From assembly GCA_029858565.1 (NCBI GenBank), contig JAOUEV010000001.1, positions 1 through 64,000 on the forward strand: 64,000 bases of DNA. Reading direction: 5' to 3'. A program made the position numbers and the translations under genes. Below the pieces are notes generated by a model. It made no database searches, was not told the DNA's origin, and was given only the letters and a program-made list of their open reading frames with translations. The stretch is from Nitrospirota bacterium. Its GTDB lineage: Bacteria; Nitrospirota; UBA9217. Numbering within the stretch: the stretch's first letter is position 1; every line of letters starts with the position of its first letter. Shown here one piece after another: positions 14,752 to 25,348 of the stretch.

Positions 14752-15147
14752 ATGAGACATGCATGCGCGGGAAGACAATTTGGACGGAATAGCGGCCATC
14801 GGAAAGCTTTGTTGAGAACCCTGGTTCGGGCCCTGCTGAAAAATGAAAAGATCGAAACAACAGTAGCCAAGGCAAAGGAAATCCGTCCATTGGCTGAGAA
14901 AATGATCACCTTGGCCAAACGGGGTGATTTGCACGCACGTCGCCAGGCGATGAGCTTTATTCAGGATGAGGCTGTTGTCAGCGGTCTGTTCGCTGATATT
15001 GCACCGCGCTTTGGTGATCGTAAGGGTGGCTATACGCGAATTGTGCCAACGCGGCAGCGTATGGGAGATGCTGCGGAAATGGCAGTCATTGAGTTGGTTG
15101 AGCGCTCTAAACAGGCCAGTTCTGCAGCAGTAAGTGGAAAAGCTTAG
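14752..15147 (+). CDS. rplQ: 50S ribosomal protein L17
   Basis: MRH...[22 protein letters not shown]. Confidence 0.98.
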
Positions 15148-15241
15148 TAGATTAGCAAGTTATAGAGCGACGCGAAATTTTCTGTTAGCGGCTATCTTAC
15201 GAAGAATTGTCAGTAGCTAAGTAGGACACTATACTGCTTAC

Positions 15242-15273
15242 AAAGGCAAGGGAATTTCCCTTGCCTTTTTTTA
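15242..15273 (+). terminator. Rho-independent terminator ending the ribosomal superoperon
   Basis: AAAGGCAAGGGAA-T-TTCCCTTGCCTTT followed by a T tract. Confidence 0.9.
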
Positions 15274-15836
15274 TTGCGTTTACAGCGGCAGGTGAATATG
15301 TTAATATCATACTGAAATTTCAAGGTAATCCATGAATAAACCCAGCAGATATATGCTCACCGACCTGATATATTCTGATCGTAAAACGGCAGTGTTACGC
15401 CGGTGCCGGATTGATCGCAGTTTTCTTTTCCCCTTGATGACTTATATTCTAACGTCTTTCCTTCTCGTAATTCCTGACCTTGAAGTGCACCTAGTGTCCG
15501 CTCGACATCGTGATTTTCTGAATTGTATTGCTTTCCGTGGTAACTTCTTCTTGTTTCCTGATTTCGGCGATGACATAGGACCTTTTTAGATGTGTTGTAT
15601 AGCATGATATCCATACTACTCTTTATCATAAGTGTCCGTTATGCAATTATCACTGAACATAACAGATGGTTGCGGAGTTTTTATCGATGGTGATCGCACT
15701 ATCGGATTATGTGTTAGCAGCGCTCACAATACCTTATTGGATATGAAGGAACTCTATGCAGGGGGTACAGATTTGATTAAACGTCCTCAAGTCGCGAAGA
15801 GTCCATTCGGAGCGCATGAGAAAGGGGCGACCATTG

Positions 15837-16769
15837 ATGCCAAATAACCGTATTGGTCTGCTCGTAACTGTGCTTATGGTAATTTTATTCCTGTTCCCTC
15901 TCAATGGATGCAAACATCGAGATCGGGAAGTCCGAGAAAAAAAAATATTTGGACAGCAGGAACTCCTTATTGGACTCATTCCGGAGCAGAATATTTTCCG
16001 ACAGCGTGAACGGTATCTTGTCTTACGGAAATATCTTTCCGAGAGGCTGGGAATCAATGTGACTTTCACCAGCCTCAGCAGATATGGGAACATTATTGAA
16101 CGATTTACAGCGGAAAAAATGGATGGAGCGTTTTTCGGAAGCTTTACCTACGCGTTAGCGCACCGACAACTTGACGTGGAGCCGATTGTCCGCCCGGTCA
16201 ACCTTGATGGCACCTCTACTTACCACGGATACATTTTTACCAGAAAAGATAGCGGAATTAAAACGGTAGGAGATATGAAAGGGAAGCGTTTCGCTTTTGT
16301 GGAACATGCGACAACCGCAGGCTATCTCTTTCCTTTGGCATATTTTCGGGATAGTGGTATCAAGGATATCAAACAATATCTGGGGCAGAGCTTTTTCTCC
16401 GGTAGCCATGACGCGGCAATTCTTGCCGTGTTAAACAAAGAGGCTGACATTGGCGCTGCGAAAAACACGATTTACGACCAGCTCGCTTCGGAGAATAGAC
16501 GGGTGGAGCAGGAACTGATCGTTTTAGCAGCATCGGGAGTCGTTCCCCAGAATAGCCTGGCCGTTCGAAAGGACCTTGATCCGGAGCTCAAGAAGGAACT
16601 TAAACGCATACTTCTTGAAATGGATGAAAACTCCGAGGGAATGGATGTCCTTCAACGATTTGGAGCGCGTAATTTTATGGAAACTACGGACAAAGACTAT
16701 GCTTACGTTTATACATTGGCTAGTCACGTAGGCATCGATCTTAAAACGTACCGATACACGAACCAGTAA
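15837..16769 (+). CDS. PhnD/PtxB-family (phosphate/phosphite/phosphonate-type) substrate-binding lipoprotein
   Basis: Lipobox LNGC; IGLIPEQN, KGKRFAFVEHATTAGYLFP, FSGSHDAAILAV; no ABC permease or ATPase nearby. Confidence 0.85.
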   Translation: MPNNRIGLLVTVLMVILFLFPLNGCKHRDREVREKKIFGQQELLIGLIPEQNIFRQRERYLVLRKYLSERLGINVTFTSLSRYGNIIERFTAEKMDGAFFGSFTYALAHRQLDVEPIVRPVNLDGTSTYHGYIFTRKDSGIKTVGDMKGKRFAFVEHATTAGYLFPLAYFRDSGIKDIKQYLGQSFFSGSHDAAILAVLNKEADIGAAKNTIYDQLASENRRVEQELIVLAASGVVPQNSLAVRKDLDPELKKELKRILLEMDENSEGMDVLQRFGARNFMETTDKDYAYVYTLASHVGIDLKTYRYTNQ

Positions 16770-16781
16770 TACCTATATATC

Positions 16782-18227
16782 ATGAAGAAACGAATCCTCA
16801 TAAGCTTTGGCTTGCTGTTGTCGATTTTCCTGGTGGGGAGCTGTGTCGCCTGGATCTATATCAGCAGAACCACTGAGCGGATGGACAAACTGATCCTCTT
16901 GCATCAGGTCGAAATATTGCGAGAAGACTTGATCATCCACATCCAGCAGGTACAATCGCAGATCGCGCGGAGCCGAGTCCGCAGCGGTGGGGATGTTGAT
17001 GTGCTGATTGCGCATGTACAGGAAATGGACAAGGTCATGGATTCCTGCGTCGGTTGCCATCATACGCCTGAGTTGATGCAGGGGCTTTATTCTATGCGTG
17101 ATATGGCAAATGACTATAAAAGCGCAATAAGTATGTTGGTAACTGCTTCATCCAATCCTTCTCATATTGTTCAACTGGAACAGAGGGCTCAGTACCTCGG
17201 CCAGGAACTTATTTCCATGACTCAGGGGATGGCTTTTACCGCGAACATCCATTTGCAGCAAAAAACACAGGATACCATGGCTACTATTCGTGAAGTGCGG
17301 AACGTGCTAATAGTAACACTGCTCGTCGCATTGCTGCTTGCTGTCGTGACAGTAATGCTCCTGGTCAAACAACTTCACCGCCGGCTGCAAAATCTTCTTG
17401 ATGCCACGCGACGAATCGCTCGTGGAGATCTACAGCACAGGGTTGATATCGAAGGCGCAACAGGCGACGAATTTGGCGAGCTCGCGACCTCGTTCAATTC
17501 CATGACGCATGATTTGCAAAGGTCGCAAAGGCAGTTGCTGCAAAGTGCCAAGCTTGCCGCTGTCGGTGAGCTTGCGACAAACATTGCTTATGAAGTGAAT
17601 AATCCGCTGACCGGAGTTCTCGGATATGCGGGGCTTCTTCTAAAGGCAGACGATGTCCCCGCGGATAAGAAAGAGCATTTGCGCACGATCGAGCGGGAAA
17701 CACTCCGGGCACGTGAAATACTCAGAAATCTGCTGGATTTCTCTCGGAGAAAACCGCCTCAACTATCCAGTATTCGGATTTCCAGCGTCATTGAGGATAC
17801 CTTGGCGCTGGTTCGCGGGCAGGCAAAACTGGCTAATGTCGAGATCAAGACCGAGTGCTCAGAACAGTTGCCGGAGGTGGCTGTCGATATTGATGAAATG
17901 CGTCAGGTATTTCTTAATTTGATCAATAACGCATTCCACTCTATGCCTTCCGGGGGAATTCTTACCATCGCATGCTCAAATGAAATCAATCATTATGAGC
18001 GGCATATGATATCGATTAGCCTCACAGATACTGGTCTGGGGATAGCAGAAGAGCATTTGGATAAGATCTTTGATCCAATTTTTACTTCTCGGCCTGATGG
18101 TGAATGGACAGGATTGGGGCTGTCGATCAGTTTCATGATCGTGCAGAATCACGGCGGGAAGATAGAAGTAGAAAGTTCCGTCGGCGAGGGCTCAACGTTC
18201 CGAGTACTGCTGCCTACACGAGGATAG
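16782..18227 (+). CDS. Membrane sensor histidine-kinase-like protein: 2 TM, periplasmic CxxCH, HAMP, HisKA with His->Tyr, HATPase_c
   Basis: SCVGCHH; HAMP IARGDL..DEFGELATSFNSM; H-box IAYEVNNPL; N-box NLINNA; DTGLGI; TGLGLS. Confidence 0.9.
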   Translation: MKKRILISFGLLLSIFLVGSCVAWIYISRTTERMDKLILLHQVEILREDLIIHIQQVQSQIARSRVRSGGDVDVLIAHVQEMDKVMDSCVGCHHTPELMQGLYSMRDMANDYKSAISMLVTASSNPSHIVQLEQRAQYLGQELISMTQGMAFTANIHLQQKTQDTMATIREVRNVLIVTLLVALLLAVVTVMLLVKQLHRRLQNLLDATRRIARGDLQHRVDIEGATGDEFGELATSFNSMTHDLQRSQRQLLQSAKLAAVGELATNIAYEVNNPLTGVLGYAGLLLKADDVPADKKEHLRTIERETLRAREILRNLLDFSRRKPPQLSSIRISSVIEDTLALVRGQAKLANVEIKTECSEQLPEVAVDIDEMRQVFLNLINNAFHSMPSGGILTIACSNEINHYERHMISISLTDTGLGIAEEHLDKIFDPIFTSRPDGEWTGLGLSISFMIVQNHGGKIEVESSVGEGSTFRVLLPTRG

Positions 18228-18263
18228 AGAACATTACACGTTTTAACAAGGAGATGTGGACGA

Positions 18264-19772
18264 ATGGCTGGAGAGCGGATACTAATTGTCGACGATGAGG
18301 AGATGATCCGTGATCTATGTGCTCATATCCTGATATCCGAAGGGTATAACGTTGTCGTCGCATCGTCGGGCGACGCGGCACTGGAGGAACTTGCTCGAAC
18401 GCCAGTTGACCTGGTGATCTCGGATATCAAAATGCCCGGCATGGACGGACTTGAACTGTTCGAGCGGGTCAAGAAACAAAAAACGGACATGGTGACCATC
18501 TTTATCACAGGTCACGGTACACTTGATACAGCGATCGAATCCATCATGCGCGGCGTTGAAGGGTTCGTGTTGAAGCCCTTTACCCAGGAGGAATTGGTCA
18601 CTGCCGTAGACCGCGCCGTTACCCGTTCACGCCTTCAAAAGGAAAATATCCGACTCAAGGCGCTGATCCCGCTATTTGAGATCAGCAAATTGCAGGTAAC
18701 AGAAATAGATCTGGCGCATCTATTCAGGATCATTACCGAGGTGCTTGTTCAGGAGTTTTCCGCTGATCGGGTCTCCCTGATGCTTGTGGACCATTCGGCG
18801 GGAAAGCTCATCATTCGCGCGTCTCACGGATTGCCGACCGACTTGGCACTTCAAGCGACTCGTAATTTCGGGGAAGGGATATCCGGACTGGTGCTCGATC
18901 GCAGAAGTCCGATTATAATCACAAAAGGAAAACATGATGATCCCGAGGTAAGGGCGGCCCTGAACACTGACGATATGCCATTATCGTCGATATCCGTCCC
19001 CCTAATCGGCAAGGATAAACCATTGGGTGTGTTGAACGTAAGCAAATTTACCGATCCTGAATTTACCACAAGCGATCTTCAGATCATCTCGATTCTTGCG
19101 AGCCAGGTTGTGGCTGCGATGGAGAATGCATCCCTTTATGAGGGGCTGCGGGATAGTTATTTCCGAACGGTACAAGCGCTGGTAGCGGCAGTAGAAGCCA
19201 AAGACCCCTATACTCGCTGGCACTCGACCAACGTAGCGAAGTACGCTGTTGCGATCGGACGCGAGATGGGTCTTACGCCTTCACAGCTTGAGGAGATTCA
19301 TATCGCATCGATACTTCATGACGTTGGCAAGATAGGGATCAGCGAACGCATCATCGGGAAGCCTGACCGATTGAGCCGTGAAGAGTTTGATATCATGAAA
19401 GATCATCCGGCGCATGGGATGAGGATACTTGAACCGATCGGTTTCGCTGTATCGATCATCAATGCTATTTATCAACATCATGAACGATATGATGGGAAGG
19501 GATATCCTCAGGGGCTCGCAGGCGATGGGATATCGTTATCCGCCCGTATCCTGAATGTCGCTGATACGATCGATGCTATGGTGTCTGAGCGCCCCTATCG
19601 CGGTTCCATAGCGATCGGAGCAGTGCTAGCCGAACTGGAGAAAGAATCAGGATTTCAGTTTGATCCTCTGATTGCTCAAAGTGCACGTAATCTTATTGAA
19701 AAGGGACTTCTCCGGTTAGGCATGCAAACATACGCCCAGCATGCCGCCGGACGTTCAGGACAAAATCCATGA
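18264..19772 (+). CDS. Response regulator REC-GAF-HD-GYP (putative c-di-GMP phosphodiesterase)
   Basis: ILIVDDE...SDIKMPGMDG...KPF; GAF-like SVPLIG..GVLNV; EAKDPYT, LHDVGKIG, HHERYDGKGYP. Confidence 0.9.
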   Translation: MAGERILIVDDEEMIRDLCAHILISEGYNVVVASSGDAALEELARTPVDLVISDIKMPGMDGLELFERVKKQKTDMVTIFITGHGTLDTAIESIMRGVEGFVLKPFTQEELVTAVDRAVTRSRLQKENIRLKALIPLFEISKLQVTEIDLAHLFRIITEVLVQEFSADRVSLMLVDHSAGKLIIRASHGLPTDLALQATRNFGEGISGLVLDRRSPIIITKGKHDDPEVRAALNTDDMPLSSISVPLIGKDKPLGVLNVSKFTDPEFTTSDLQIISILASQVVAAMENASLYEGLRDSYFRTVQALVAAVEAKDPYTRWHSTNVAKYAVAIGREMGLTPSQLEEIHIASILHDVGKIGISERIIGKPDRLSREEFDIMKDHPAHGMRILEPIGFAVSIINAIYQHHERYDGKGYPQGLAGDGISLSARILNVADTIDAMVSERPYRGSIAIGAVLAELEKESGFQFDPLIAQSARNLIEKGLLRLGMQTYAQHAAGRSGQNP

Positions 19773-21481
19773 AACGTGTACGGCTGCGCTCCAAATTGGT
19801 CAAACGTCTATCAGCGTCATCAGGCAAGCCGACCGCGGTCCGTCATCTGTTTGACGATCGCGTGGCCGAAGAGAGCGCGCCCGGAAAAGTTGGGGCACTT
19901 GATCCTGTTCGTATCGGTACGGAAGATGAAGTCCTGTATCATCTTGGAAGCCTCTTGGATAGCGTGAAGACCGCGATCATCTCGCTGGATGGAGAAGGAC
20001 GGGTGCGAGTTTTCAATGCTGTGGCGGAGATGCTGTTTAATGTGCCGCGTCAGGCAGTTCTCGGGAAGCCGTTCGGCATTCTTGGGCGCATGGACTATTT
20101 CACCGAAAGCTCTATCCGGGCCCTTTGGGAGCGGCTTGCAGACGCAGTATGGGCAGCAGGTGCCGCACTTGACCTTGAATACGATCTTATTCGGCCAAAA
20201 GGTCAAAAAAGGGTAATTTTGTACAGCGTGTATCCGCTTGGGCGGCTCCCCTGGTCGGTGGGGAACGGTGTTGTGCTCATGCTTGAGGACATAACCCGGA
20301 AGAAGGAGATGGAAGAGCAGATAAGCGATGGTCGTAAGCGACTTCAGACAGTATTCGATGGCATAACCGATGGTATCCAGGTTGTTGACCGGGAATTCAG
20401 GATAACAGCAGTCAACAGGTCCATGACCGCCTTGGTTGGTGGCAATGTAGCAATCGGAAACCGATGCTATCGTTCCTGCGCGTCCAGCACTGAGGTTTGC
20501 GATGAGTGTCCGGCAGTCGAAACATTCCGGTCTGGTCAGCCTGCTTCGGTTGTCAAACGAATTCCCCGAAAGAACAAGTCGTTCTCGAATATTGGCGAAG
20601 ATCGAATTTACGAAATAAGTACATTTCCACTTCTCGACAGAGGAAATCGCGTTCTTCAGGTGGTGGAATATATCAAGGATGTGACCGAGCGGATTCTTTT
20701 GGCAGAGCGGCTGGAGCATTCTCGACGCCTGGCAGCCTTGGGAGAAATGGCCGCCCGGGTAGCGCATGAAGTGCGAAATCCTTTGAACGCGATCACTGGC
20801 GCGGCACATTATTTAGCCAGCGAGTATTCGCAGGACGGTACGATTCAGCAGTTCACAAGCTTGATTAAGCGTCAATCGGACCGTGTCGAGCAAGTCGCTT
20901 CTGATATCCTTCATGCAGCGAGACCGCTCCGGCTTAATCGAACAGCCGTAGATCTCACCGCTGTATTCGAATATGTGTTTACGACGCTTGACCATGCGAT
21001 CAGAGCGCAAGGGATCATCGTGCGGCATTCGTCTATCAAGGAACCGGTCATCATTCAGGCCGATGAGGTTCAGATAGAACAGGCAGCGATAAATATCGTG
21101 AAAAATGCGATAGAGGCAATGCCAGAAGGGGGTGTCCTGGCAGTTGAGACAACGATCTCAGCTGATGGCCGTTGGGGCATTGCTACGGTGGAGGACGACG
21201 GATGCGGAATCCGTCCTGAGGAACGGGAGAAGGTGTTTCAGGCCTTTTATACGACGAAGGCCCAGGGGACCGGGCTTGGTCTTTCGATTGTTGAAGGTGT
21301 TTTGAAGAATCATGGCGGGACCATTGCAATCGAGCAGCCATCGCATGCGGGGACCCGTATCACCATGCGACTTCCTGCAACGACAAACGAAATATCCCCG
21401 ATAGCGGGATCTGAGCATGTTCGTGACGGAATCGTTAGGGTATCCTTCGCGGAGCGCATCCGCTCCCGACGGCCGGCATAA
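19769..21481 (+). CDS. Cytoplasmic PAS-PAS sensor histidine kinase
   Basis: Two PAS-like domains; intact H-box VAHEVRNPL; [26 protein letters not shown]; no TM stretch seen. Confidence 0.9.
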
Positions 21482-21485
21482 CAAT

Positions 21486-22898
21486 ATGAAGCCATCCATT
21501 CTGATAGTAGACGATGAGCCCGATATCGTACTTGTGATGAGCGCGAACCTTCGCAAAGAAGGATATGATGTTGATACAGCGGGAGATGGTCTGGAGGCAC
21601 TCAAGAAGACCGAGGGGCGTGATTTTGACGTCATTATCGTCGACCACCAGATGCCTCATTTGACAGGGATGCAGTTCCTGCAGCGATTAAGGAACAGCGA
21701 TAATGCAGGGAACGGCCGCTCCGAAGTTCCGATCATTCTGATCACCGCCTATGGAACGATCGAGATGGCTGTTCAGGCCATGAAGGACGGCGCTTACAGC
21801 TACCTTACCAAACCTATCCGGTATGAAGAACTGAATCTCCAGGTCAAAAATGCAGTCGAACGCCATCGTCTGTCCCGTGAAGTGCAAAGCTTACGCAACG
21901 AGATGGAAGCGCGATATCGTTTTGGGAATATTATCGGTAGAAATCCCCGCATGCATGAGATCTTCCGCATTATCCCGACCGTGGCGGAAACCGACGCGAC
22001 CGTGCTTATTCATGGAGAGAGCGGGACCGGTAAAGAACTGATCGCTCACGCTATCCACTATAACAGCAGGAGAAAAGATAAGCCCTTTGTGGTAGTCAGC
22101 TGCTCGGCCCTGCCTGAAGCGCTATTGGAGAGCGAATTGTTCGGCCATGAAAAGGGGGCGTTCACCGGAGCGATCCGCCAGCGGATCGGAAGGTTCGAAA
22201 TGGCCGAAGGTGGAACTGTCTTTCTTGATGAAATAGGCGAGATGTCCATGTCGGTCCAGCAAAAACTTCTCCGAGTGCTCCAGGAGCGTGAAATTGAGCG
22301 TGTGGGAGGAAATCAAACGACGAAGGTCGATGTCCGGGTCATCGCAGCAACCCATCGGGATCTTCAGCAAGCCATGGAGGAGCGTATGTTCCGCCAGGAC
22401 CTATTTTACCGGTTGAACGTTGTACCGATCAAGCTTCCCCCATTGCGTGATCGACTGGATGACGTGCCGATGCTCGCTGCACATTTTGTGGATAAATATT
22501 GTGAAAAGAACAATAAGAAACGCAAGACCATCAGTAATGAGGCTCTCACGGCGCTCTGTTCCTACGGTTATCCCGGCAATGTCCGCGAATTAGAGAATAT
22601 CATCGAGCGCGCGGTGATCATGGAAAAAGGTGACGCAATCCTGCGCGGGGATCTGGGATTCCCACCCACGTCTCACAAAGATACCTCTGTGCCGATGGTG
22701 CGAGATCTGAATTCATTCAAAAAAATGAAGGCCGACGTGATCGCTCAGTTCGAGCGGGAATATCTCGGCCAAGTGCTCAAGATCTACAAGGGAAATATGA
22801 GCAGGTCCGCCCAGCATGCGGGGATGAACATAAAGAACTTTCATGAAAAGATGGCCCGTTACGGGATGAAACGAGAGGATTTTAAGGAAGAAGCATGA
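21486..22898 (+). CDS. Sigma54-dependent response regulator (NtrC/AtoC family: REC-AAA+-HTH)
   Basis: [37 protein letters not shown]; start ATG 21486. Confidence 0.95.
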
Positions 22899-22930
22899 CC
22901 GGCATGCATGCTGCCGGGAAGGGAATGGTT

Positions 22931-23521
22931 TTATTGTGCTTCAGGCGTGGGACTGCAGGCAGTGGATGAAGAGGAGAGAAGCGGTTGTTTCATCTTCCTG
23001 CTGACCAAGGAAACCAAAAGGAGAAAGTGCAGAGAGAACATGATAGCATTGAACATGCGAGGCATCTTACCCAGGAGGTTCATCAGCGCCACGAGAGGAT
23101 AAAGCCACATGAGGACCCATCCTTCGCGTAAGGCAAAACAATAGGCTTCTTTTCCCGCTATTCCCGCAGTTCCAAAACATACCAATCCGATCCCCAGAAG
23201 GGCGACCGTAAGCGCATTTTCAGCAGCAACGAAATAGAGACCGATGACCTGAACAAAGAGTCCTGTAATTATCGCACCAAGAATGATCTTCTTGACCCAT
23301 GTTATCCAGACAATCAGATTAAACCCCGCTATCAACGCACCCAGTTCGAAGATCATGATGCCGATCGTATAAAAAGGATGACTGATCGGATAAAGTACCG
23401 CCAGTATTCCGGCACCCACGGCCTGCAAGACCAGTCCTGTTCGATAGGCTATCGCATTCTTTTTCCTCATGAGCACACCAGCGCTCAATGGTTGTTCTGT
23501 AGGGGTTGTTTGTGAGTTCAT
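22931..23521 (-). CDS. Integral membrane protein, DUF2301-like (start may be 23470)
   Basis: Multiple TM segments; YRTGL and GIAGKEAYCF motifs recalled from DUF2301. Confidence 0.6.
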   Translation of the reverse strand: MNSQTTPTEQPLSAGVLMRKKNAIAYRTGLVLQAVGAGILAVLYPISHPFYTIGIMIFELGALIAGFNLIVWITWVKKIILGAIITGLFVQVIGLYFVAAENALTVALLGIGLVCFGTAGIAGKEAYCFALREGWVLMWLYPLVALMNLLGKMPRMFNAIMFSLHFLLLVSLVSRKMKQPLLSSSSTACSPTPEAQ

Positions 23522-23741
23522 GGCACTTTATATAGCACGCGTACCGGTGTGTATGCAAGATAAAATCGTATGCCGGTGCTGGCAGAAGACCCTGTCAGGA
23601 TTTAAAGCACCTTGATCAAGACCAGAAGAGGCAATATGATTGAAGGCCTTCGGACAATATTTGTTGCAATACTTAGAAACTCAAACATGGATAATAACAC
23701 TATTGGTAATTGTAATTTTGAGCTCAAAAGGTAGAAACATC

Positions 23742-23770
23742 TTGACTAAAAAATAGAATTTTGTTATAGT
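23742..23770 (+). promoter_or_regulatory. Sigma70 promoter upstream of the porin gene
   Basis: TTGACT-17 bp-TATAGT with extended TG; perfect palindrome TTTTGAGCTCAAAA at 23716-23729. Confidence 0.65.
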
Positions 23771-24115
23771 CAGCGCAAATTTCGCTGCATTATTACTGTC
23801 TTCTTTGCGAAATTTTATGGCAGACGGAGCGGCTGTATCCACCATGTGCCAAATATGACATCTACTGTCCGAGATCACTCATCGAATCACCTCATTTCCC
23901 CAACATCCACTGCCGGGATCCCGGAGCGGATGTTTCGAACCATGCTCCTCGCACTTTTCCGTTTTTTTAAGTTAATGCTGCGAACGCTTTGAAGAAAGGG
24001 GGGATGCTGGAAATCGTTTTTCCGGATCAAGTTTATGGTTTCACCGTTGCATGAATAACGCCAATGGTATCGCCTACTCCATCGAGGAGTAAAACTACTT
24101 TAGGGAGGATAAACG

Positions 24116-25348
24116 ATGAAGAAGTTTCTCGCACTATTTGCAGTACTGGCGCTGACCATGGTCAGCTCAGCCGCGTTCGCTGAAGTATCGGTCAGCGGCA
24201 GCATCGACATCCGCAATCTGTCAACCAACAATGCTTCGGACATGAATTCTGACAAATCGGACGAGAACCGCACCACCCAGGAGCGTATCCGCATCAATGT
24301 GGACGCGAAGCACGAGGGTGTGAAAGGACGGGTCACCCTGGAAAACGACTGGTATGTCTGGGGTTCGGCGACCAACGGCTGGGCCGGGTCCGCCGTCGAG
24401 AGCAAGAGCGGTGCACTGACGATTCGTGAGGGCTGGATCGATTTCAGCATGCCCTTCGGTATGCCTGGCCACGTCAAGGTCGGCCATCAGATGCTGCAGC
24501 TTGGCAATGGCTGGTTCTTCCGCGCCAACAAGTACGGCTCCGATGCCTGGCTAATCGGCTTCCCTGGCAAGAATACCTTCGCGTTCGTTGACGTGAAGGC
24601 TGCCGAGGGTCTCAACGCTGGTTCCGACGACGTTGATGCCTATGTGCTGCTCGACACCTACAAGATCGATGACAAGAGCTCCGTCGGCGCCTATTTCGTG
24701 CGCGTGATGGATCGCCAGGGCAAATTCATGGCTGGTGGCGGCGCGGATGCTGAGGGGACCCTCGATACGATCGGCCTGCACTACAATGGCATGGTTGGCC
24801 CGCTGAAGCTGGCTGCTGAGTTTGACATGCAGAGTGGCGAGGCTGATCCGGGTGCTGGCGCCGCAACGACGGATCTGTCCGGCAAGCAGATCATAGTTCA
24901 GGCCAGCATGCCGCTGGATGCGCTGACGATCAACGCGACCTTTGCCATGGGCAGCGGCGACGACGCGACCACGGCTGAGGAAGAGGGCATCACGGTGGCG
25001 CTGGACAAAGATCCGCACTATACCTTCGTCTATGAGTACTTCACGAAGACCGCTGCGGGCGCGACGAACACGGGCTTCGCGAACACCACTGCCATGAACC
25101 TCGGCGCTTCCTACAAGGTCTCCGGCAATGTGACCGTGGCCCTCGACTACTGGATGCTGACCGCGACCGAGGTTGGCGCAGGTGTTGATGATGAGGTCGG
25201 CTCGGAAATCGATGCCAAGATCCTCTGGAAGCTGAATGACAACCTTTCCTGGAACTGGTCACTCGGCCGCTTCATGCCGGGCAAGTTCTATGGCGCGAAT
25301 CCGGATGATGTTGATGCAGTCCAGGGTATCCTGAGCTACAAGTTCTAA
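24116..25348 (+). CDS. Major outer-membrane porin-like beta-barrel protein
   Basis: Signal peptide (AFA), amphipathic strands, C-terminal LSYKF, strong RBS AGGGAGG, strongly biased codon use. Confidence 0.8.
   Translation: MKKFLALFAVLALTMVSSAAFAEVSVSGSIDIRNLSTNNASDMNSDKSDENRTTQERIRINVDAKHEGVKGRVTLENDWYVWGSATNGWAGSAVESKSGALTIREGWIDFSMPFGMPGHVKVGHQMLQLGNGWFFRANKYGSDAWLIGFPGKNTFAFVDVKAAEGLNAGSDDVDAYVLLDTYKIDDKSSVGAYFVRVMDRQGKFMAGGGADAEGTLDTIGLHYNGMVGPLKLAAEFDMQSGEADPGAGAATTDLSGKQIIVQASMPLDALTINATFAMGSGDDATTAEEEGITVALDKDPHYTFVYEYFTKTAAGATNTGFANTTAMNLGASYKVSGNVTVALDYWMLTATEVGAGVDDEVGSEIDAKILWKLNDNLSWNWSLGRFMPGKFYGANPDDVDAVQGILSYKF

Follow-up and report, generated by a model that had tools for sequence, protein, structure and literature searches.

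We studied a 64,000-nucleotide window of DNA from a Nitrospirota bacterium (GenBank assembly GCA_029858565.1, contig JAOUEV010000001.1, positions 1 to 64,000 of the forward strand), in which five co-oriented signalling genes lie at 15837-22898. They encode a binding protein, a membrane kinase-like sensor, a REC-GAF-HD-GYP response regulator, a soluble PAS-PAS histidine kinase (PAS kinase) and an NtrC-type sigma-54 activator (Table 1). A preliminary description, made from the letters of the window, had presented these genes as a single branched signalling system. Its layout agrees with the open reading frame (ORF) coordinates, which give intergenic gaps of 12, 36, -4 and 4 bp, the -4 overlap resting on the first ATG of the PAS kinase, whose first ~35-90 residues are unaligned in orthologues; orthologues of the NtrC-type activator align from residue 1 of the start used. 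Every domain it named was returned by Pfam: Phosphonate-bd (2e-64) in the binding protein; HAMP, HisKA and HATPase_c in the membrane sensor; Response_reg, GAF and HD_5 in the HD-GYP regulator; two PAS domains, HisKA and HATPase_c in the PAS kinase; and Response_reg, Sigma54_activat (7.5e-75) and HTH_8 in the activator. As it had stated, there are two receivers and only one kinase that retains its His, at His333 of the PAS kinase; in the membrane sensor, referred to below as the Tyr-sensor, Tyr270 stands where the phospho-accepting His would be.

Table 1. Features of the signalling cluster and its leader, in window coordinates
Feature	Positions	Strand	Basis or remark
Terminator-like hairpin	15242-15268	+	12-pair stem then T run; 3' of rplQ (end 15147)
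Noncoding leader or promoter region	15269-15836	+	Slot of upstream kinase in 27/30 related loci
Binding protein	15837-16769	+	ORF; alternative ATG start 15816
Membrane kinase-like sensor (Tyr-sensor)	16782-18227	+	ORF and Pfam
Codons for C89-V-G-C92-H93-H94, putative covalent haem c site	17046-17063	+	CxxCHH motif
Tyr270 codon TAT	17589-17591	+	Position of phospho-accepting His
REC-GAF-HD-GYP response regulator	18264-19772	+	ORF and Pfam
Soluble PAS-PAS histidine kinase	19769-21481	+	ORF and Pfam
NtrC-type sigma-54 activator	21486-22898	+	ORF and Pfam

The Tyr-sensor has the architecture of a complete receptor kinase: a transmembrane segment, a periplasmic part modelled as a four-helix bundle, a second transmembrane segment, HAMP, a dimerization and histidine-phosphotransfer (DHp) domain and an ATP-binding domain with intact N, G1, F and G2 boxes, the residues of which are invariant in a 22-sequence alignment. 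Its H box reads AYEVNNPL. Of 7999 candidates scored, 3480 proteins had E <= 0.001. Among the best 120 homologues listed (67-100% identity), 119 have Tyr at the H-box position, one has Cys and none has His, the residue four positions on (H+4) is Asn in 118 and Ser in two, and the periplasmic CxxCH motif is found in all 120. Orthologues were present in 35 genomes, that of the window included, out of 301 Nitrospirota genomes sampled, all within the family-level group of the window; within this sample the orthologue sensor domains are at least 59% identical to that of the window, the next best match being 39%. Tyr was found in 35 of the 36 orthologue loci examined. The remaining locus, L056, has His and is identical in sequence to L030; the H box of L030/L056 (AAIIAHEVNNPL) has His for Tyr, a single base change apart. 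In a quick maximum-likelihood tree (29 rows, midpoint root, no bootstrap; L002-L004, L021 and L025-L028 left out by a start-motif filter), the Tyr clade is monophyletic, with a value of 100 in the Shimodaira-Hasegawa-like approximate likelihood ratio test (SH-aLRT), and sits on a long stem of 0.91. L030 is nested inside this clade as sister to L016 (support 91), and its His is an apparent reversion. Judged from these alignments, the Tyr substitution and the CxxCH motif are selected and are neither chance nor decay.

A Tyr at this position is known from DivL of Caulobacter crescentus, in which Tyr550 replaces the His and which binds phosphorylated DivK to control CckA; the published account calls this Tyr unique (PMC4211667). 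When the transmitter of the Tyr-sensor was compared with solved structures, ZraS was the best match (7e-36) and DivL ranked 11th (8e-22). Since its transmitter is closest to ZraS, the Tyr would have arisen independently of that in DivL.

The putative haem site, CVGCHH (residues 89-94), lies between the two hydrophobic segments of the Tyr-sensor. The sensor domain was found in 77 of the best 150 representatives clustered at 50% identity, and CxxCHH is kept in all 77. An H box can be recognised in 43 of these, with His in 42 and Tyr in one, but not in the other 34. The motif is invariant in 41 diverse family members, and the domain family occurs in 92 of the 301 sampled genomes of the phylum. 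A model of the periplasmic part (residues 26-180), built with the 41-sequence alignment, is a four-helix bundle with a predicted local distance difference test value (pLDDT) of 90.6 and a predicted template-modelling score (pTM) of 0.80. In the same alignment C89, C92, H93 and H94 are invariant, and H41, E44 and R47 of helix 1 nearly so. CxxCHH is placed at the turn between helices 2 and 3, with H41, E44 and R47 level with this turn by helix register, and going by the predicted secondary structure the haem would lie near the membrane-proximal stalk. The isolated sensor domain matched no Pfam family, and a Foldseek search with the model gave no match at E <= 0.001. The best PDB rows (E ~7e-3, template-modelling (TM) score ~0.8) are generic four-helix-bundle sensor domains, by name the Adeh_2942 kinase sensor domain (TM 0.78-0.82), the QseE-QseG complex and PcaY; that of Adeh_2942 is described as a Tar-like bundle with no haem (PMC3831638). 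The genome has six matches to the cytochrome c assembly family PF01578. We infer that the bundle carries a covalently bound haem c with a redox or gas input.

The binding protein has a signal peptide and a possible lipobox (LNGC), scores 188.5 against the NCBIfam model TIGR01098 (cut-off 112) and is closest among solved structures to PtxB (1e-34), ahead of AioX (~4e-12) and ArrX (up to 1e-10). It is an orphan, there being no ATP-binding cassette (ABC) transporter genes in the cluster. Distant family members were sampled as 20 loci holding 21 members. A Phosphonate-bd gene is directly upstream of 17 of the 21, or of 18 with an ambiguous gene call in L087 included, and is absent in three; the H box is His in 17 of these members and Tyr in none. 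With this neighbourhood, it is plausible that the binding protein and the CxxCH membrane sensor form an input pair, as the preliminary description had proposed. A complex prediction for the binding protein and the periplasmic sensor domain scored 0.06 against a mark of 0.32, with controls not run, and is evidence neither way. In many of the His-bearing relatives (L068-L082), the sensor kinase is preceded by two consecutive binding-protein genes, first ABC_sub_bind and then Phosphonate-bd, and L068 has two complete binding-protein-plus-kinase pairs in tandem. An NtrC-type regulator lies directly downstream of the His-bearing relative kinase in L074, L077 and L078. The NtrC of the cluster was considered as an orthologue of these regulators and rejected: it ranks 10th of 25 genome matches and has no special relation to them. 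The window genome also holds a paralogue of the sensor (L086; G000:C113:17000-25000), in which the same periplasmic domain (CTNCHA) is fused to HAMP-PAS-GGDEF-EAL and a Phosphonate-bd gene is directly upstream; from this fusion it would follow that the module also couples directly to turnover of cyclic-di-GMP (c-di-GMP).

The composition of the cluster was then compared across related genomes. A contig scan gave 33 loci, 30 of them orthologous (57-75% identity), which were annotated by tblastn with the window proteins and with the upstream kinase described below. All are from uncultured Nitrospirota metagenome-assembled genomes except one labelled Betaproteobacteria (L016). In all 30 loci, the HD-GYP regulator comes next after the Tyr-sensor. 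The PAS kinase and the NtrC-type activator, by comparison, are both present in 17 and both missing in 10 (L010, L012, L017-L023 and L026), neither is ever found singly, and three loci cut by contig ends (L007, L009 and L024) are undecidable. Gene order, which the preliminary description had named as a check on its proposal, is conserved for the Tyr-sensor and HD-GYP regulator, and the PAS kinase and activator look like a separate pair that is optional. A gene for the binding protein occurs in 16 loci, is lacking in 13 and is undecidable in one. The ribosomal gene rplQ is found upstream in 26 of the 30; of the others, two begin too late for it to be seen, L014 has none within 5 kb and the context of L016 differs.

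In 27 of the 30 loci, a further gene, for a His-bearing membrane kinase of ~715 aa, lies between rplQ and the binding protein or sensor. The N-terminal part of this upstream kinase is Cache-like (a sub-threshold match in one member; the N-terminal domain matched no Pfam family when run isolated) and is followed by HAMP, GAF, HisKA (AHEINNPL) and HATPase domains. It is absent in the window, L016 and L021. A tblastn search of the window leader found no remnant of it, and the window genome (estimated 100% complete) has no full-length copy, the best transmitter match being the Tyr-sensor itself at 48%. By this comparison the upstream kinase gene is lost in the window genome. Because this genome has lost a kinase that is found in 27 of 30 loci, the picture of a cluster with one kinase would represent a derived state.

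The HD-GYP regulator looks intact. Its residues 137-472 match the solved GAF-HD-GYP enzyme PmGH (PDB 4mcw) at 3e-46, and the cGAMP-specific HD-GYP 5z7c also matches (1e-38), so that the substrate may be c-di-GMP or cGAMP. Across 31 of 31 regulator sequences there is no change at any of the ten residues checked, among them D10, D11, D54, T82, K104, HD and GYP, and the protein is predicted to be a cyclic-dinucleotide phosphodiesterase. It resembles PmGH in its GAF and HD-GYP domains with intact motifs and differs from it in having a receiver fused in front and a pseudokinase as its cognate 'kinase'. RpfG is reportedly a REC-HD-GYP regulator. Given that both the phospho-acceptor and the catalytic residues are invariant in all 31 sequences, phosphorylation of the regulator is likely to matter. 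With Tyr270 in its H box, the Tyr-sensor, so far as residue identity tells, cannot serve as a canonical phosphodonor. A non-canonical route, by which it would be autophosphorylated on Tyr270 or another residue, or in trans, and would pass the phosphate to the HD-GYP regulator, is in our estimation very unlikely. Phosphotyrosine is without the high-energy P-N bond needed for transfer to Asp, and the 22-sequence alignment has no other conserved His near the H box; these weigh more with us than the intact ATP-binding domain, the His of a single orthologue and the fact that the acceptor Asp of the regulator is conserved even in L021, a locus without another kinase. In addition, DivL shows no autokinase activity (PMC4211667).

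The PAS kinase and the activator look like a cognate pair of their own. The H box of the kinase is AHEVRNPL (His333, codon 20765-20767). Its second PAS domain contains C233-x3-C237-x6-C244-x2-C247 (20465-20509), and the four Cys are invariant in 20 of 20 orthologues; a fifth Cys, at 479, is not conserved. The pattern points to a metal or Fe-S site, and so to a separate redox or metal input on the cytoplasmic side. Because the Cys4 cluster is invariant, the kinase looks like an autonomous cytoplasmic metal or redox sensor, not a relay. The activator has GAFTGA in its AAA+ domain and rpoN is present in the genome, which also holds at least 25 NtrC-like proteins and 79 kinase-like matches. Both outputs, HD-GYP and NtrC, seem intact. 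No sigma-54 target could be assigned: the sigma-54 consensus is not enriched in the window (eight matches against 6.06 expected), and no sigma-54 promoter target is identifiable near the cluster. The porin gene downstream was considered as a target and rejected, the sigma-54-like site before it (24036-24051, TGG-N9-TGCA, ~65 bp before the gene) being found in 0 of 14 related loci; this site is probably a chance match.

In order to assign the kinases to the regulators, we compared their DHp and receiver domains. Over 74 residues of the DHp domain, the Tyr-sensor shares 58% identity with the upstream kinase but only 31% with the PAS kinase. After the H box, the Tyr-sensor and the upstream kinase share T-G/S-V-L-G-Y, where the PAS kinase has N-A-I-T-G-A; these are positions that we take, from structural work on kinase-regulator complexes, to contact the receiver. 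Identity between the two receiver domains is 32.5%. Together with the co-occurrence data, these results suggest that the HD-GYP regulator is the partner of both the upstream kinase and the Tyr-sensor, and the NtrC-type activator that of the PAS kinase.

This assignment bears directly on the proposal that the Tyr-sensor, with the binding protein and haem as its input, allosterically controls the PAS kinase, which in turn would phosphorylate both regulators. Neither step fits the comparison well: 10 of the 30 loci keep the Tyr-sensor and HD-GYP regulator in the absence of the PAS kinase, which is gained or lost as a pair with the activator; its DHp domain and docking residues differ (N-A-I-T-G-A against T-G-V-L-G-Y in the Tyr-sensor of the window); and it has a conserved Cys4 sensing site of its own. 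What speaks for the proposal is that the PAS kinase is the only His-bearing kinase of the operon in the window and in L016, that the genes are tightly packed, that both receivers are NtrC-like and that both kinases score best against AtoS/ZraS models; control of a kinase by a pseudokinase also has a precedent in DivL-CckA (PMC4211667). On balance, we regard this branched scheme as improbable, and an allosteric mechanism with one kinase as less likely among the readings that the data allow. In the window and L016, branching from the PAS kinase to both regulators is possible, and nothing supports it.

We favour instead, with a little less than even confidence, two separable two-component modules, with the Tyr-sensor acting on the HD-GYP regulator as a signal-gated, kinase-dead phosphatase or as a binder of the phosphorylated regulator. 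The first module, the conserved core, would consist of the membrane receptor and the REC-GAF-HD-GYP regulator. Its periplasmic bundle would bind haem c covalently and take in a redox or gas signal, and the orphan PtxB/PhnD-like binding protein would dock on the receptor to add the input of a small anion-type ligand. The transmitter, which retains the E-x-x-N phosphatase determinant, the docking helix and all ATP-binding boxes, would when signalled erase the phosphate on the regulator without kinase activity, or else bind the phosphorylated regulator. The phosphorylation state of the regulator would then set its hydrolysis of c-di-GMP (or cGAMP). In most relatives, the phosphodonor would be the upstream membrane kinase (Cache-like, HAMP, GAF) with its near-identical docking helix; in the window genome, it would have to be some other kinase, for which the PAS kinase next to it is a candidate, or acetyl phosphate. 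The second module would be the PAS-PAS(Cys4) kinase and the NtrC-type activator, a cognate pair with its own cytoplasmic sensing site.

We rank phosphatase activity first and DivL-like binding second because the ATP-binding boxes and the Asn at H+4 are well kept. That an H box without His can support a phosphatase is indicated by the NtrB-like kinase CrdS, in which H371A loses kinase activity with its phosphatase activity modestly lowered and N375 (H+4) is essential for the latter; according to that report, the half-life of the phosphorylated regulator is 2.6 min with H371A, 0.7 min with the wild type and 53.5 min without enzyme (PMC3510030). The H box of the Tyr-sensor is like that of CrdS H371A in lacking His while keeping E at +1 and N at +4 (PMC3510030). 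Unlike such laboratory mutants, H371A and NtrB H139N alike, the substitution in the Tyr-sensor is natural and fixed. NtrB H139N is said to be a kinase-dead, phosphatase-competent mutant.

Several points weigh against the favoured reading. The window, L016 and L021 are without the upstream kinase, the cluster of L021 contains no His kinase whatsoever, and the donor is not fixed. The positions of the docking residues come from structural work and not from covariation. The binding protein is missing from the 13 loci noted above. H+4 is not Asn in some orthologues (Ser in L048/L062, Asp in L022/L059, His in L088), and the His-bearing L030 is nested in the Tyr clade, so the scaffold may still support kinase chemistry. 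Finally, DivL keeps the H-box context and yet has neither kinase nor phosphatase activity (PMC4211667); the H-box motif is therefore insufficient for phosphatase activity.

Alternatively, the Tyr-sensor could signal without catalysis, as DivL does: its DHp domain would bind the phosphorylated HD-GYP regulator or tether it at the membrane, and so couple phosphorylation state and periplasmic signals to the activity of the regulator or of a partner kinase, which would be the upstream kinase in relatives and the PAS kinase in the window. We consider this unlikely, though somewhat less so than the branched scheme. The Tyr is specifically conserved and all kinase boxes are kept, as in DivL (PMC4211667), and a few orthologues have residues other than Asn at H+4, as would suit a role without catalysis. 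The closeness of the DHp domain to that of the upstream kinase would also make heterodimers, or competition for the same regulator, conceivable. However, the homology to DivL extends only to the generic kinase core, as the ranking behind ZraS indicates, L021 offers no partner kinase in the locus, and DivL is described as binding ATP analogues poorly (PMC4211667), whereas the ATP-binding boxes of the Tyr-sensor are invariant.

Compared with described systems, each part is of a known kind. The Tyr-sensor is like DivL in having Tyr for the phospho-accepting His conserved across orthologues, in keeping the surroundings of the H box together with the N, G1, F and G2 boxes, and in sitting among real kinases (PMC4211667). 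It is unlike DivL, a cytoplasmic multi-PAS protein, in being transmembrane with a four-helix bundle and HAMP; its partner is an HD-GYP enzyme-output regulator where that of DivL is the single-domain DivK; and it comes from Nitrospirota, not Alphaproteobacteria, and is not orthologous.

With AioX-AioS-AioR and with ArxX/ArrX, the cluster shares an orphan PtxB/PhnD-like binding protein beside a membrane kinase and a sigma-54 regulator nearby, as these systems are reported (PMC5908839). The differences from AioXSR are that the Tyr-sensor is without a phosphorylatable His and has CxxCHH, that the adjacent regulator is of the HD-GYP type while the NtrC co-occurs with the PAS kinase, that no target operon such as aioBA is adjacent and that the nearest solved relative of the binding protein is PtxB, a phosphite protein. 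TorT-TorS reportedly also pairs a binding protein with a membrane kinase.

A periplasmic CxxCH inside a sensor domain is likewise a reported feature of the PAS-type Geobacter proteins GSU0582/GSU0935 and of Cache_haem. Those domains have a PAS (PMC3831638) or a Cache fold, whereas that of the Tyr-sensor is predicted to be a Tar/NarX-like four-helix bundle. In the literature searched, which did not include subscription literature, no helical-bundle haem c sensor and no pseudokinase with an HD-GYP regulator were described, so their absence is unproven. The combination differs from the described systems that were found in its clade-wide Tyr-for-His receptor with CxxCHH, its habitual orphan binding protein and its invariable HD-GYP partner.

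It is possible, though rather doubtful, that we are dealing with a second, independently evolved class of Tyr-for-His pseudo-histidine kinases, in which a transmembrane haem c and ligand receptor senses or erases phosphorylation of an HD-GYP regulator, without being a phosphate donor, to control c-di-GMP, and that the CxxCHH bundle is a new, widespread family of haem c receptors with orphan PhnD-like proteins. If so, the convergence with DivL would imply that Tyr itself is functionally selected at the His position. Natural pseudo-histidine kinases are rare, and a second, unrelated lineage, here spanning a family-level Nitrospirota clade with one member apparently reverted to His, would provide an independent test of why Tyr was chosen. 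An ordinary pathway of environmental sensing would, moreover, be seen to contain a receptor wired 'backwards'. What emerges from the comparison is an unannotated four-helix-bundle domain of the periplasm with invariant CxxCHH, a candidate combined redox-plus-ligand sensor when paired with its orphan phosphite/phosphonate-type binding protein. For annotation, the lesson is that two modules, together with a lineage-specific gene loss, can pass for a 'five-gene branched system'.

A few observations concern individual loci. Frameshifted genes occur in L008, L010, L020 and L026; we do not read them as decay, because housekeeping genes are also split (rpoA in L010, folD in L010 and L026). In L020 the HD-GYP regulator is split into pieces, and an IS605 OrfB/TnpB-type gene with a Cas12f1-like TNB domain lies between rplQ and the upstream kinase (L020:4362-5552). 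In L016, the four genes from sensor to NtrC are on an 8-kb contig beside a divergent sigma-factor-like fragment, not after rplQ; its sequences nest in the Nitrospirota clade, and its presence in a non-Nitrospirota bin is probably a binning error or a transfer.

In the window, the genes 5' of the signalling operon are rpsM-rpsK-rpsD-rpoA-rplQ, and the terminator-like hairpin divides this ribosomal/rpoA operon from the signalling operon. At its 3' end, the signalling operon is convergent with a gene for a DUF2301 membrane protein, beyond which lies the porin gene. An ORF of 85 aa at 15332-15589 had no Pfam match, and an Rfam search of 15100-24150 gave nothing significant, the single sub-threshold match being sraA (E 0.98). 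The interval between rplQ and the binding protein (15148-15836, 690 bp) is ~96% conserved in contigs from another study. One 39-kb contig spans the junction in the probable source run, and an independent run has two contigs that overlap and together cover 15187-16266 at ~96% identity. We conclude that assembly error does not account for the junction between rplQ and the binding protein.

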